From assembly GCF_016903815.1 (NCBI RefSeq), contig NZ_CP069973.1: DNA of 64,000 nt, one strand, 5' to 3'. Positions 32,401 through 39,008 of the stretch are shown here, one piece after another. The notes beneath the pieces were generated by a model that was not told the origin of the DNA, did not search any database, and saw only the letters and a list, made by a program, of their open reading frames with translations. The translations under genes and the position numbers were made by a program. The stretch is from Escherichia coli. GTDB taxonomy: Bacteria > Pseudomonadota > Gammaproteobacteria > Enterobacterales > Enterobacteriaceae. Position 1 is the first letter of the stretch, and each line of letters begins with the position of its first letter.

Positions 32401-33615
32401 CCGCTGGGCCGCAGGGTGGCAAAACGGGTGTGGCGGCGTGAACGGGACCTGACGGGCTGGATGTCGCTGTCACGGAAACCGGAAGTGACCTGGTACGGCT
32501 GGGACGGCGACCGGCTGACCACGATACAGAACGACAGAACCCGCATCCAGACGGTTTATCAGCCGGGGAGCTTCACGCCACTCATCAGGGTCGAAACCGC
32601 CACCGGTGAGCTGGCGAAAACGCAGCGCCGCAGCCTGGCGGATGCGCTTCAGCAGTCCGGCGGCGAAGACGGTGGCAGTGTGGTGTTCCCGCCGGTGCTG
32701 GTGCAGATGCTCGACCGGCTGGAAAGTGAAACCCTGGCTGACCGGGTGAGTGAGGAAAGCCGCCGCTGGCTGGCATCGTGCGGCCTGACGGTGGAGCAGA
32801 TGCAAAACCAGATGGACCCGGTGTACACGCCGGCGCGAAAAATCCACCTGTACCACTGCGACCATCGCGGCCTGCCGCTGGCGCTTGTCAGCACGGAAGG
32901 GGCAACAGAATGGTACGCAGAATACGATGAATGGGGTAACCAGCTGAGTGAGGATAACCCGCACCAGCTGCAGCAGCTCATCCGCCTGCCGGGTCAGCAG
33001 TATGATGAGGAGTCAGGCCTGTATTACAACCGCCACCGCTATTATGACCCGCTGCAGGGGCGGTATATCACTCAGGATCCGATTGGACTGAAGGGGGGAT
33101 GGAATTTTTATCAGTATCCGTTAAATCCGGTTCAGTATATAGATTCAATGGGACTGGCATCTAAATATGGACACTTAAATAATGGCGGATATGGAGCGAG
33201 ACCCAACAAACCGCCTACGCCCGATCCAAGTAAGTTGCCAGACATAGCGAAACAATTAAGACTGCCATATCCTATTGACCAGGCCAGTAGTGCGCCTAAT
33301 GTTTTCAAAACATTCTTCAGAGCATTAAGTCCTTACGATTACACACTGTATTGCAGGAAGTGGGTAAAACCCAATCTGACTTGTACGCCGCAGGATGATC
33401 CCCAGTATCCAGGGATGGAGACAAAGACAGCAAGTGATTACCTGCCACAGACAACTTGGCCAACAACTCAATTACCACCAGGATATACTTGTGCAGAACC
33501 CTATTTATTCCCAGACATTAATAAACCCGATGGGCCAGCAACAGCAGGGATAGATGATTTGGGTGAAATTTTAGCTAAAATGAAACAGAGAACATCGAGA
33601 GGAATAAGAAAATGA
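29428..33615 (+). CDS. rhsB: Rhs family polymorphic toxin (PAAR-like N-terminus, YD-repeat core, variable C-terminal toxin tip)
   Basis: 1395-aa track ORF; YD repeats; conserved core end ...[16 protein letters not shown] (DPIGL at 33076-33090); locus position after nikR. Confidence 0.93.
32701..33143 (+). repeat. Rhs core 3' segment, copy 1 of about 443-bp direct repeat
   Basis: Near-identical to 37551..37993 (same reading frame, a few substitutions). Confidence 0.85.
33091..33615 (+). other. variable C-terminal toxin domain of RhsB (after DPxGL motif), function unknown
   Basis: Sequence after DPIGL is AT-richer and Pro/Tyr/Cys-rich with no recognisable catalytic motif. Confidence 0.7.
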
Positions 33616-34181
33616 AAAGAGCTTTGTTCTTTTTGCTGATGATATTCGTTAGTTTTGGTGTTATAGCTAATTGCGAAACACAAGCTAAAGATCAAGATTG
33701 CTTTACCATTTTCACTAAGGGTACTATTTTTTCCGCGTTTCCTGTCTTAAATAATAAAACCATGTGGAGATGGTATCAGAATGAGGACATAGGTGAGTAT
33801 TATTGGCAAACAGAACTTGGTATATGTAAAAATAACAAATTCACACCAAGCGGGGCGAGACTCTTAATTCGCGTCGGATCACTACGCCTTAATGAAAATC
33901 ATGCAACCAAAGGAACGTTGCAGGAGTTGCTAAATACAGCAGAAAAAACGGCGTTTCTCGGCGATCGGTTTAGAAGTTATATAAGAGCGGGTATCTATCA
34001 AAAAAAGAGCAGTGATCCAGCTCAGTTGTTGGCAGTCCTTGATAATTCAATCATGGTTAAATATTTTAAAGATGAGAAGCCAACTTATGCTCGAATGACA
34101 GCACATCTCCCGAACAAAGATGAGTCTTACGAATGTTTAACAAAAGTACAGCATGAACTGCTTCGTAGTGAAGAAAAATAA
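33612..34181 (+). CDS. putative cognate immunity protein of RhsB toxin tip; has N-terminal signal peptide
   Basis: ATG overlaps rhsB stop (ATGA at 33612-33615); 189 aa; [20 protein letters not shown] signal-like N-terminus. Confidence 0.65.
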
Positions 34182-34202
34182 AATCTCTTCCTGAGAAAAT
34201 AA

Positions 34203-34340
34203 ATTAACTATTCGAAAAAATATGTTCTTAATGGGTATCCAGGAACACCAGAAGGTCGATTTGGAAAAATGGATTCCGATGGTAAGAATATCATATATTC
34301 TGAATGTAATGTTTTACCCACAACTTTTGAGATTCGATAG
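34203..34340 (+). pseudogene. possible relic of a toxin C-terminal tail (open frame without start)
   Basis: 45-codon open frame ...YSKKYVLNGYPGTPEGRFGKMDSDGKNIIYSECNVLPTTFEIR ending 10 nt before the next small ORF start. Confidence 0.3.
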
Positions 34341-34349
34341 GTGTAGAGC

Positions 34350-34697
34350 ATGAGAAACTCACTAATATTACTTATTATGATATTGTTTACAATATCACAC
34401 TCAGTATTTGGAAAAGAAAATTCAGTGGAAATTTTAGTAAATAGTCGTGAAATGGCTTTGGAATTATCATATGTTTATATTAAATATATATACGGGAAAG
34501 AAAAAGCAGAATTTCAGAAACCATATAGTATTACAGATGACAATAATTGTTGGAAAATCGAGGGAAAACAACCGAAGACGTTAGGAGGAAATTTTACAAT
34601 ACTAATAGCGAAAAAAGATGGGCAAGCGTTGGATGTAATACACAAAATAATCCACTGTTCAAACGATTCAAATATTTTACCAAGGTGTGTTTCATAA
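34350..34697 (+). CDS. small secreted NTF2-like putative orphan immunity protein
   Basis: 115-aa track ORF with signal peptide; paralogous to ORF 36296..36562. Confidence 0.6.
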   Translation: MRNSLILLIMILFTISHSVFGKENSVEILVNSREMALELSYVYIKYIYGKEKAEFQKPYSITDDNNCWKIEGKQPKTLGGNFTILIAKKDGQALDVIHKIIHCSNDSNILPRCVS

Positions 34698-36666: not shown

Positions 36667-37509
36667 ATGTCAAATACATACCAGAAAAGAAAGGCAAGTA
36701 AAGAGTATGGTTTATATAATCAATGTAAGAAACTAAATGATGATGAATTATTTCGCTTACTTGATGATCACAATTCCTTGAAAAGGATTTCATCTGCCAG
36801 AGTATTACAGTTAAGAGGTGGTCAAGACGCTGTTAGATTGGCAATTGAGTTCTGCTCTGATAAAAATTATATCCGTAGAGATATCGGAGCATTTATACTC
36901 GGGCAAATAAAAATTTGCAAAAAATGCAAAGATAATGTGTTTAATATTTTGAACAATATGGCATTGAATGATAAGAGCGCTTGCGTTCGAGCTACGGCAA
37001 TCGAGTCAACGGCTCAGCGATGCAAGAAAAACCCAATTTATTCACCTAAAATAGTAGAACAATCTCAAATTACTGCTTTTGATAAATCGACTAATGTCAG
37101 ACGTGCTACAGCATTTGCTATTTCTGTTATCAATGATAAAGCAACAATTCCACTATTGATTAATCTGTTAAAAGATCCAAATGGAGATGTCAGAAACTGG
37201 GCCGCATTTGCAATAAATATCAATAAATATGATAATAGTGATATTAGGGATTGTTTTGTGGAGATGCTTCAGGATAAAAATGAGGAAGTCCGTATTGAAG
37301 CAATAATCGGACTTTCCTACAGAAAAGATAAAAGGGTTTTATCTGTTTTATGCGATGAGTTAAAAAAAAATACTGTTTATGATGATATCATTGAAGCTGC
37401 GGGTGAATTAGGTGATAAAACGCTACTTCCTGTTTTAGATACTATGTTGTACAAGTTTGATGACAATGAAATTATAACTTCCGCTATTGATAAGCTGAAG
37501 CGTTCATAG
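36667..37509 (+). CDS. HEAT-repeat (PBS-lyase type) protein, YibA-like putative Rhs immunity protein
   Basis: Track ORF 36652..37509; ATG at 36667 has ggagg RBS and gives 280 aa; repeated D.N..VR..AA.AL motifs. Confidence 0.8.
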   Translation: MSNTYQKRKASKEYGLYNQCKKLNDDELFRLLDDHNSLKRISSARVLQLRGGQDAVRLAIEFCSDKNYIRRDIGAFILGQIKICKKCKDNVFNILNNMALNDKSACVRATAIESTAQRCKKNPIYSPKIVEQSQITAFDKSTNVRRATAFAISVINDKATIPLLINLLKDPNGDVRNWAAFAININKYDNSDIRDCFVEMLQDKNEEVRIEAIIGLSYRKDKRVLSVLCDELKKNTVYDDIIEAAGELGDKTLLPVLDTMLYKFDDNEIITSAIDKLKRS

Positions 37510-37550
37510 CGTGAGTTGCCTATGCACAGTGGGGGATTCCCGCCGGCACG

Positions 37551-37993
37551 GTGCAGATGCTCGACCGGCTGGAAAGTGAAATCCTGGCTGACCGGGTGAG
37601 TGAGGAAAGCCGCCGCTGGCTGGCATCGTGCGGCCTGACGGTGAAGCAGATGCAAAACCAGATGGACCCGGTGTACACGCCGGCGCGAAAAATCCACCTG
37701 TACCACTGCGACCATCGCGGCCTGCCGCTGGTGCTTATCAGCACGGAAGGGGCAACAGAATGGTGCGCAGAATACGATGAATGGGGCAACCTGCTGAATG
37801 AAGAGAACCCGCAACAGCTGCAGCAACTCATCCGCCTGCCGGGTCAGCAGTATGATGAGGAGTCCGGCCTGTATTACAACCGCCACCGCTATTATGATCC
37901 GCTGCAGGGGAGGTATATCACTCAGGATTCGATTGGGCTGAAGGGGGGATGGAATTTTTATGAGTATCCGTTGAATCCGGTTCAGTATATAGA
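37551..37993 (+). repeat. Rhs core 3' segment, copy 2 of direct repeat
   Basis: Matches 32701..33143; DPIGL motif altered to DSIGL in this copy. Confidence 0.85.
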
Positions 37994-38516
37994 CCCTTTT
38001 GGATTAGCTGATATGAATTTCTATGATGAGGGGATACGCAGAAATGTATCACTGCATGCTGCAACAGATAAAATAAATATTCCTGGCGTTTTTACTATTG
38101 GAGGACATGGATATCCTGGTTTTATTACAGATGAAAATGGAAACTATGAAACTGCTGAGGGAGTAGCCAAGAGAATCAGAGCTAATCCACGCTATAAAAA
38201 GGGAATGTCTGTTTGATTATTCTCATGTGGTACAGCCAGAGAGGGAGATAAATCTTTTGCCAGCAAGTTAGCCAGAGCACTTCATGCAAATGTCACTGGA
38301 GCTGATACACAATGGCAAGTATGGATGGCGTGGGATAATAATACTCCTCTTTTTAATACGATCCAAACAGGACTTACGGATAATATCTCGGCAATTGACA
38401 CAAGTAATAATGTCATAACTGGTAATAATATGGGCCGCTGGATAACGTTTGGACCTTCAGGTCAACCCATTTCTTCCACTCCTGGCAAAGTTATGAGACC
38501 AAGTGATATAAAATAA
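37551..38516 (+). pseudogene. orphan Rhs C-terminal module (core 3' fragment plus distinct toxin tip) interrupted by in-frame TGA
   Basis: First 443 bp duplicate rhsB 32701..33143; TGA at 38214-38216; same frame stays open through the 63-aa track ORF to 38516. Confidence 0.75.
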
Positions 38517-38529
38517 CAAAGGTGGCAAC

Positions 38530-39008
38530 ATGAAGTGCTTTTTATTTATTCTGATTGCAAATGTTTTCTTTTTCTCTTGTTGTTCATATGGAGGTGAAAT
38601 CCCCCCCCTATTAAGCTCCATAACATTGAAATAAGCTCAACATCTGAATCGTTTAATTTAAGTGAAAATCAAAGATATGAACTTGATATTAAATCTGAGG
38701 GCGGGGATGGTGATGCGTCATATCGATTACATCAATATTATACATATGTTTGCTTTAATATACCCAAGCAAATTAAATATCTGGCAAGGTCTGCATCTCA
38801 AGGAAATATCATAGCGCAATATAATTATGCTATGATTCTATCCTCAGAGGAGGATGATTCCTATTTAAAATATTATAATTTAGATAATGCAATTAATTGG
38901 CTGAAAATGGCTGCCTCACATGGCTATATTAAAGCCGAGGTTGAATTGCTAAGGCTTGAAAGGCTAAAAGAAACTATAAGGTTAGGGAAAGATCATCCAA
39001 TGCCGTAG
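38530..39008 (+). pseudogene. Sel1-like repeat lipoprotein gene disrupted at a C8 homopolymer (frameshift or phase-variable)
   Basis: ATG at 38530 with RBS; signal/lipobox-like MKCFLFILIANVFFFSCC; C8 tract at 38601-38608 ends the frame after 34 codons; a +1 frame continues to TAG at 39006-39008. Confidence 0.6.

Follow-up and report, generated by a model that had tools for sequence, protein, structure and literature searches.

Orphan immunity genes and remnants of Rhs toxin modules downstream of rhsB at the nikR–yhhJ site of Escherichia coli

The rhsB locus and its content

We have analysed a stretch of 64,000 nucleotides of an Escherichia coli chromosome (contig NZ_CP069973.1 of assembly GCF_016903815.1, hereafter "the window"), in which the genes nikC, nikD, nikE and nikR are followed by an rhs gene of full length and then, on the opposite strand, by yhhJ and rbbA. 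This is the site of the rhsB locus of E. coli K-12, and it corresponds to locus 9 in the survey of rhs sites by Jackson et al. (2009, BMC Genomics 10:584; PMC2935791). Our analysis is focused on the interval between rhsB and a copy of the insertion sequence (IS) IS1, where seven immunity-type genes of six families are located on a single strand, together with one displaced Rhs C-terminal module, two relics of the Rhs core, four relics of toxin tails (3′ tails of 10-26 codons each) and the scar of an IS3 element; the displaced array takes up ~5.4 kb. Very probably, we are dealing with an rhs C-terminal displacement array, in which successive toxin/immunity modules have been stacked at nikR–yhhJ; most of the island is decaying and is not a working immunity set.

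The composition of the interval differs from that of its surroundings: the guanine-cytosine (GC) content is 37.6% in the island (33616-39008), compared with 61.7% in the rhsB core and 58.6% in the nik genes. The break occurs within rhsB itself, where the core at 61.7% is followed by a toxin tip at 43.6%, and the immunity genes lie at 29-38%. Three of the seven immunity genes are intact (ybfC, the first NTF2 gene and yibA), while frameshifts, nonsense codons or truncations affect the other four as well as the orphan toxin. Every module of the array has counterparts elsewhere in E. coli, and each orphan immunity gene, with the exception of the first NTF2 gene, has kept beside it the 3′ end of a toxin for which another strain holds the complete version. 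Cognate toxins can be assigned by synteny to five of the six orphan immunity genes, in addition to the pair at the front of the array. The features are listed in Table 1.

A first-pass annotation, made from the letters of the window without database searches, had described this interval as an island linked to Rhs, with immunity genes that are orphans and toxin modules that are degraded. The homologies, the family assignments and the comparison of genomes support that description, with the additions that the locus is not novel in kind and that it is mostly decaying. The small AT-rich, immunity-like open reading frames (ORFs) that had been listed between rhsB and IS1 are all present on the + strand, joined by a further one (DUF6258), and profile searches have assigned five of them to families (Imm-NTF2-2 twice, PF13599, DUF6258 and YibA/HEAT). 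Several of them do not hold up as whole genes: truncation has made a chimera of the pentapeptide ORF, frameshifts or truncations are present in DUF6258, in the second NTF2 gene and in the Sel1 gene, and the orphan toxin contains an in-frame TGA. The start-less toxin-tail relic that had been noticed is real, and the count now stands at four tails and two Rhs-core relics; the displaced Rhs C-terminal module has likewise been recovered by the profile searches. The island is also, as had been stated, larger than its K-12 counterpart, where only yhhH and yrhC (a fragment of yibA) lie between rhsB and the H-repeat element. The arrangement is conserved across strains: the 6.1 kb from 33000 to 39100 are present at a coverage of at least 80% in 246 of 5,426 complete E. 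coli genomes, many of them at 100% identity, where the RefSeq labels read RHS core protein, hypothetical protein, NTF2 fold immunity protein (twice), DUF6258, pentapeptide fragments, yibA, RHS fragment, IS1 and ISAs1.

Table 1. Features of the rhsB locus and of the downstream array (positions are those of the window)
Feature	Position	Strand	Evidence and remarks
rhsB, full-length, intact, 1395 aa	29428-33615	+	Conserved core is residues 1-1243, then variable tip
YbfO-type toxin tip, 152 aa after ...DSMGL	33157-33615	+	Homology to K-12 ybfO
ybfC-like immunity gene, 189 aa, intact	33612-34181	+	Start overlaps the rhsB stop (ATGA)
Orphan immunity gene 1, Imm-NTF2-2, intact	34350-34697	+	PF15631, E 3.6e-16, model 1-67 of 68
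Rhs-core relic, core residues ~919-1000, frameshift and in-frame stop	34901-35133	+	tblastn of RhsB
Toxin tail, last ~19 codons, partner of DUF6258	35129-35186	+	Joined directly to the core relic
Orphan immunity gene 2, DUF6258, degraded	35201-35564	+	PF19772
Second Rhs-core relic, 3′ part of core	35700-35765	+	Core match at 35722-35765
IS3 right-end scar, ~62 bp, remainder deleted	35766-35827		95% match, in many genomes, to the terminus and to the final 34 bp of the IS3 transposase gene
Toxin tail, last ~12 codons, partner of pentapeptide gene	35813-35852	+	Comparison with isolate AF40
Chimeric ORF, pentapeptide-repeat gene and Tox-JAB-2 tail	35849-36214	+	PF13599, 3e-6
Orphan immunity gene 4, yhhH-like Imm-NTF2-2	36186-36562	+	PF15631, E 3.5e-21, model 1-68 of 68 (36296-36562)
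Ntox34 (K-12 RhsA-type) tail, last ~10 codons	36615-36647	+	DSRQSNDRKR, then stop; K-12 RhsA ends HSRQSNDKKR, then stop
Orphan immunity gene 5, yibA (HEAT repeats), intact	36667-37509	+	NF007244, 465.7 bits (cut-off 275)
Displaced start-less Rhs C-terminal module, core fragment (to ~38005) and YibJ-type tip	37539-38516	+	RHS_core 302 bits, TIGR03696 83 bits
Orphan immunity gene 6, YibG-like Sel1 lipoprotein	38531-39008	+	Frameshift in C8 tract, 38601-38608
IS1, 768 bp	39181-39948		Perfect 9-bp target duplication CCATGTGTT at 39172-39180 and 39949-39957
Truncated ISAs1 (H-repeat)	39965-40548	+	RefSeq partial ISAs1 transposase

The toxin tip of RhsB and the YbfC-like protein

The RhsB protein of the window matches the NCBIfam model RHS_core (NF041261) with 2616 bits (cut-off 2000) over model positions 1-1261, and a Pfam scan of its residues 1-1000 has returned DUF6531 (residues 46-123) and 11 significant RHS_repeat matches (E <= 0.001). 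The gene is ~95.7% identical to K-12 rhsB up to position 33129; the last 300 bp of the core are 94-95% identical to ybfO and to rhsC of strain O157, against 85% to K-12 rhsB. The upstream recombination breakpoint within the core could not be placed by sliding-window identity, because the cores of rhsA, rhsB and rhsC are 94-98% identical and only the last ~300 bp discriminate between them. Positions 32900-34223 share 95.6% DNA identity with the K-12 pair ybfO-ybfC, which is a start-less orphan at the K-12 rhsC locus, and the tip differs from K-12 YbfO at three of its 152 residues.

The YbfO-type tip has no match in sequence searches of Pfam, NCBIfam or the Protein Data Bank (PDB). A word-indexed search of 5.8 billion proteins has found relatives of the tip that are exclusively Rhs-linked, in Escherichia, Salmonella, Phytobacter and a few metagenomes, and a hidden Markov model (HMM) search with the tip against 1.84 billion representative sequences has returned 28 proteins, without a link to any named family. 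Of the ~20 of these 28 that were inspected, ~13 retain upstream sequence, in which core motifs of Rhs proteins are seen, and the others consist of the tip only; among the ten more distant of the 28, seven have the Rhs motif DPIGL upstream and three are tip-only. Conserved across the tips are the motifs SPYDY..YC, KPNLTC, YPGMDTKT..DYLP and CAEPYLFPD, as well as a basic C-terminus. A literature search for ybfO and ybfC has found no functional study.

The gene that follows the tip encodes the protein that had first been noticed for its signal peptide: it is 93% identical to K-12 YbfC and carries an N-terminal signal sequence and four invariant cysteines, and it has no match in Pfam or NCBIfam. 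The same order, tip and then ybfC, is found in K-12, in O157:H7 and in other genera. We regard YbfC as the predicted immunity protein of the YbfO-type tip, and the two as a putatively working front pair. YbfC is likely to be exported and to contain two disulfides; the periplasm or the envelope is therefore the most likely site of action of the toxin, where YbfC would bind and block it. We propose tentatively, and at somewhat less than even odds, that the YbfO-type tip and its exported YbfC partner represent a toxin/immunity family, as yet uncharacterised, with the periplasm or the envelope as its site of action and with an occurrence limited to the Rhs proteins of Enterobacteriaceae and of a few relatives. 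The toxin would be a small, cysteine-containing domain with no detectable kinship to known toxin folds, located on a full-length Rhs protein here and on a silent orphan in K-12. Two named K-12 genes of unknown function are in this way singled out as an apparently active pair with an exported immunity protein.

The block shared with rhsC loci

Next to ybfC is located the first of the two Imm-NTF2-2 genes. With the ATG at 34350 as its start, the product has a signal-like N-terminus; the RefSeq start is at 34425. In a distant-mode search, the gene was always found after ybfC, and an intact partner toxin was absent in all of the 847 E. coli genomes that hold it. Hydrophobic, signal-like N-termini are seen in both Imm-NTF2-2 proteins, i.e. 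MRNSLILLIMILFTISHSVFG in the first (window 34350-34420) and ...ILFRNCVIVSLFVFTYNTWAQ in K-12 YhhH (L002:6400-6516), the homologue of the second; if these proteins are exported, the site of action of the Tox-JAB-2/DUF4329 toxins neutralised by them would lie outside the cytoplasm, at odds with the nuclease role that has been proposed in the literature.

The first Rhs-core relic has been recognised through two tblastn matches of RhsB (57% identity over 42 aa and 39% over 28 aa, E 6e-11). It leads directly into a toxin tail, the origin of which becomes apparent from E. coli EC581: positions 35129-35765 of the window are 90% identical to positions 10336-10976 of the EC581 locus (L007), where the toxin tip is complete as an orphan and ends in ...NQDEADIMCGMPEYF and a stop just upstream of the DUF6258 gene, the same tail being present in the window. 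This tip has no Pfam or NCBIfam match. The DUF6258 gene of the window is degraded by a frameshift near 35280 and by a lineage-specific change of TGG to TAG at 35562; the ORF as it stands matches PF19772 with 52.8 bits (E 5.7e-14, model positions 33-95 of 136), and with the upstream frame joined to it the match rises to 78.5 bits (positions 9-97), the C-terminal third of the model being unmatched. In strain 746, which is 99.8% identical, the TAG is absent and the gene reads through to ...RYKDRWIENKLKEKIIE and its stop.

The second core relic is 84% identical to the rhsB of the window and 95% identical to K-12 rhsC over its core match, and it is annotated in strain ECJXMCRH7 as a partial RHS-domain pseudogene. 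With this relic ends a segment, 32900-35765, that is contiguous at 95% identity at the rhsC locus (ybfA–ybgA) of O157:H7 and of ECJXMCRH7; the block has therefore arrived as a unit. The rhsC locus of EC581, a pig isolate, contains additional modules (L007 9491-12147): an Rhs C-terminus with an unnamed, histidine-rich tip is accompanied by DUF6258, and further on there is another Rhs fragment, behind which a hypothetical protein and a DUF3887 protein are encoded. In view of these extra orphan modules, such arrays vary widely among strains.

The modules shared with the rhsB and rhsA loci of K-12

Behind the IS3 scar, the toxin tail that precedes the pentapeptide-repeat gene ends in ...QIFQELDDWRNR and a stop; in isolate AF40 a full-length Rhs protein ends in ...QIFPELDDWGNR and a stop directly before the pentapeptide gene, which overlaps the rhs gene by 4 bp. 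The pentapeptide gene of the window is fused to a different toxin: the chimeric ORF consists of the first 96 of the 161 codons of the pentapeptide gene (to 36136), 94.7% identical in DNA to the AF40 gene, and of the last 26 codons of a Tox-JAB-2/DUF4329 tip, with the end ...NFKAIDNHGKDIINGKGLSNVCKIHDNV and a stop matching the end of the K-12 RhsB tip, which is itself a Tox-JAB-2/DUF4329 domain. The junction (window 36120-36140) lies in a GGTxAAxTTT microhomology, which reads GGTGAAAATTTT in the window, GGTGCAAACTTT in AF40 and GGTAATTTT in K-12 rhsB. The in-frame fusion is a clean example of an illegitimate deletion, and annotation pipelines split the chimera into two "pentapeptide" pseudogenes.

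The segment that follows, 36128-37013, matches the rhsB tail, yhhH and yrhC of K-12. Its yhhH-like gene, 92% identical in DNA to K-12 yhhH, is interrupted by a frameshift between the signal-like N-terminus and the Imm-NTF2-2 domain, and RefSeq labels it "frameshifted"; Tox-JAB-2 and Imm-NTF2-2 have both been described (PMC3482391), and the yhhH-like Imm-NTF2-2 protein is the known partner of Tox-JAB-2. From 36615 to 38110, the window matches in turn the rhsA tail, yibA and yibJ of K-12. The tip of K-12 RhsA is an Ntox34 domain (PF15606, 1.7e-42), and its last codons are retained in front of an intact yibA, the product of which differs from K-12 YibA at one of 280 residues and matches HEAT_2 (PF13646, 5e-11), in agreement with the Imm-HEAT/Ntox34 pairing of Zhang et al. 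(2012; PMC3482391).

The displaced Rhs C-terminal module carries the only orphan toxin of considerable length. Its tip is homologous to that of K-12 YibJ and is inactivated by a change of TGG to TGA at 38214-38216; in EC581 the YibJ-type tip is free of this TGA and is attached to a full-length Rhs gene, which RefSeq marks as frameshifted. The tip has no Pfam or NCBIfam match, and a PDB sequence search with it has returned nothing meaningful; in one genome (NZ_AP045825.1, in the region that matches window 38010-39010), RefSeq places the name "DUF8616 domain-containing protein" on this tip, a family that our Pfam scan did not return. The gene after it had been read as a Sel1-like lipoprotein and is a candidate member of that family, in view of its likeness to K-12 YibG, judged by inspection of the two translations, and of the RefSeq name "sel1 repeat family protein" on intact, almost identical copies; in Pfam, Sel1 is matched only at E = 1. 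Strains 746 and EC581 have a C9 tract and an intact Sel1 gene of 159 aa, in place of the C8 tract of the window; a single slippage would switch the gene on or off, so that the tract could be either a site of phase variation or no more than a lesion of recent date. Both the tip of the YibJ type and the YibG-like gene have diverged from their K-12 copies to the point that megablast returns no match and the homology is seen at the protein level.

The toxin/immunity pairings and the activities of the tips had initially been left open. Synteny has now assigned partners to all orphan immunity genes except the first NTF2 gene, for which none has been found; as to the activities, the YbfO-type and YibJ-type tips have no family match, and the relic tails include those of Tox-JAB-2 and Ntox34.

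Proposed history of the array

Displacement of toxin tips has been described at enterobacterial rhs loci, including nikR–yhhJ, where new tips shunt the old tip and its immunity gene downstream, in a silent state (PMC2935791), and orphan modules and polyimmunity have been published as well (PMC3150448, PMC3967940, PMC3482391). The anatomy, the homologies, the synteny pairings and the lesions reported above are direct observations, and they are consistent with a history of the following kind. A new tip would recombine into the conserved core, and the older tip would be pushed downstream together with its immunity gene, losing promoter and start codon. In the window, an rhsC-type block, extending from the YbfO-type tip to DUF6258, would have been placed before an older rhsB array, made up of the pentapeptide module, Tox-JAB-2/yhhH, Ntox34/yibA and YibJ-type/Sel1. 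Deletions would then have trimmed nearly every displaced toxin to a tail of 10-26 codons, one of them beside the IS3 scar and another at a microhomology of 6-9 bp, and point mutations would by now be eroding the immunity genes also. The region reads as an "immunity island" because these deletions have removed nearly all of the displaced toxin sequence. The rhsB locus of K-12 is a shorter derivative, in which a longer array has been trimmed. What is left of yibA there is a 5′ stump that ends at the ISAs1 element, the yrhC pseudogene.

As regards present-day function, the YbfO-type tip would, as in other Rhs proteins, be released from the Rhs shell and delivered to neighbour cells, with a type VI system as the probable route, and some protection against neighbours that carry matching toxins may still be provided by the first NTF2 gene and by yibA. 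The delivery route, the compartment of action and this protection are what we infer.

Several observations weigh against this account or parts of it. The Pfam scan of RhsB residues 1-1000 has returned no PAAR family, the sequence PAARQGD in the N-terminus having been recognised by eye only, and no vgrG, hcp or eagR gene adjoins the locus, the flanks of which are nikCDE-nikR and yhhJ-rbbA, so that type VI delivery is proposed by analogy. The AlphaFold2 (AF2) model of the YbfO-type tip is poor (predicted local distance difference test, pLDDT, 54), and a fold search with YbfC has returned generic Ig-like matches only. Promoter and terminator scans have found sites no more common than in shuffled sequence. 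The order of the displacements is drawn from a handful of genomes and not from a phylogeny. Lastly, the low pairwise ratios of nonsynonymous to synonymous substitution rates (dN/dS) of several orphan immunity genes, at 0.1-0.33, imply purifying selection in the past, and pure decay is thus not the whole history.

Selection, decay and alternative explanations

The selection that these ratios record also speaks for the strongest alternative, in which the island is a maintained polyimmunity locus, selected for protection against the Rhs toxins (Tox-JAB-2, Ntox34, YibJ-type and others) of other E. coli. Pairwise between-lineage dN/dS is 0.13-0.33 for ybfC, DUF6258, the yhhH domain (0.23), the pentapeptide part and yibA, with small counts of substitutions; three pairs have been left out as mis-registered (NTF2a and DUF6258 against L005, and the YibJ tip against L007). 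A maintained locus would also agree with the number and variety of immunity-type genes on one strand, with the near-identity of yibA to its K-12 copy and the intactness of three genes, and with an arrangement kept in 246 genomes, and the concept itself is established (PMC3482391). Its weak point is the state of the genes: four of the seven are disrupted (DUF6258, the pentapeptide chimera, the yhhH-like gene and the Sel1 gene), and two of the lesions arose within the lineage, as the comparison with strain 746 shows, where the DUF6258 nonsense codon, the C9-to-C8 frameshift in Sel1 and the IS1 insertion are all specific to the lineage of the window. Toxin tails and remnants of cores and IS elements also lie between the genes, unlike the compact arrays of polyimmunity loci, and promoter-like sites stay at the level of shuffled sequence, with no signal of transcription. 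We therefore hold a maintained polyimmunity locus to be unlikely, though it deserves more weight than the explanations that follow. With four of seven genes disrupted and two of the lesions specific to the lineage, we regard a function at present, beyond the front pair, as possible only in the case of the first NTF2 gene and of yibA.

A second alternative concerns the displaced Rhs module, the core fragment of which (37527-37993) forms with the rhsB core (32676-33143) a direct repeat of 467 bp at 94.7% identity. In evolved Salmonella, an orphan module recombines with the main gene through such a repeat and deletes the DNA between (PMC3967940), and the island could in the same manner be a reservoir for toxin switching, a view that the YibJ-type tip on a full-length Rhs gene in EC581 would favour. 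The switch would yield a truncated toxin, however, since the orphan tip carries the TGG-to-TGA change and its Sel1 immunity gene is frameshifted, and with the other displaced toxins at 26 codons or fewer only one module would be re-usable at all; we judge this explanation improbable. The weakest alternative, to which we give hardly any credence, takes the orphan modules as toxin-antitoxin-like elements inside the producer, in place of a role in competition between bacteria, with Rhs C-termini expressed internally and regulating growth as in Salmonella, where orphan and main Rhs toxins act as type II toxin-antitoxin-like modules (PMC7043789); the ATGA overlap of the main tip and ybfC would suggest coupled expression, but a nonsense mutation interrupts the one orphan toxin whose length would suffice for activity, the exported YbfC is a misfit for a cytoplasmic antitoxin, and our scan has found no evidence of an internal start or promoter.

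Comparison with known rhs loci

The displacement array, our preferred reading, has its closest counterpart in the arrays of Jackson et al. (PMC2935791). Both have an rhs gene of full length, the core of which is GC-rich and the tip AT-rich, and an immunity ORF follows it directly; the later tips are still joined to same-clade core fragments and recur on full-length cores in other strains, and H-repeat/ISAs1 elements are located at the distal end. For the modules of the window, the tips on full-length cores elsewhere are the YibJ-type (EC581), the pentapeptide-linked (AF40), Tox-JAB-2 (K-12 RhsB) and Ntox34 (K-12 RhsA). The array of the window differs in that most of its displaced toxins are cut to tails of 10-26 codons, so that it looks like an immunity island, and in that it combines blocks from three rhs loci (rhsC, rhsB and rhsA in K-12 and O157:H7).

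Module by module, the homology to the K-12 loci rhsB-yhhH-yrhC-yhhI, rhsA-yibA-yibJ-yibG and rhsC-ybfB-ybfO-ybfC is at 92-96% DNA identity, with differences in the state of the modules: the ybfO tip is an orphan in K-12 and the attached main tip here, Tox-JAB-2 is located on K-12 rhsB and is reduced to 26 codons here, and yibA is the stump yrhC in K-12 and complete here.

With the polyimmunity loci of Zhang et al. (2012, Biol Direct 7:18), the island shares unrelated immunity genes in tandem on one strand, with a content that varies among strains; unlike those loci, it is joined to an apparently active toxin gene, toxin and core remnants are interspersed, and more than half of its immunity genes are pseudogenised. 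The main and orphan rhs modules of Salmonella Typhimurium (Koskiniemi et al. 2014; Starsta et al. 2020) likewise comprise a start-less orphan module with its own immunity gene and a core repeat available for recombination, whereas here both the orphan toxin and its immunity gene are inactivated and five further modules have no toxins.

Loci of this kind and the way in which they form have already been published, as have the families Imm-NTF2-2, Imm-HEAT, Tox-JAB-2 and Ntox34, and the sequence is annotated in hundreds of RefSeq genomes. What is new here is the detailed dissection of this allele, a few synteny pairings for unnamed families (for DUF6258, for the 161-aa pentapeptide-repeat protein and for the YibG-like Sel1 proteins), and the designation of the YbfO C-terminal tip and YbfC as a putatively active pair. 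Little changes overall; the locus illustrates clearly that a record of earlier toxin replacements is kept at rhs loci and decays afterwards.

Insertion sequences and minor observations

A GC-richer patch at 35600-35830 had raised the suspicion of an RNA element, which has been ruled out, the patch consisting of the second Rhs-core relic and the IS3 end; an Rfam scan of 33000-40200 at E <= 1 has given no match.

The target of IS1 is a stretch that RefSeq annotates elsewhere as a fragment of an IS630 transposase. IS1 is flanked by its target duplication and is absent from strain 746, otherwise 99.8-100% identical; it is therefore a recent simple insertion. The ISAs1 element at the distal end of the array is 94% identical to the K-12 sequence upstream of and within yhhI, up to an internal deletion of 713 bp at 40501-40502, which leaves a 144-aa ORF for the N-terminal part of the transposase.

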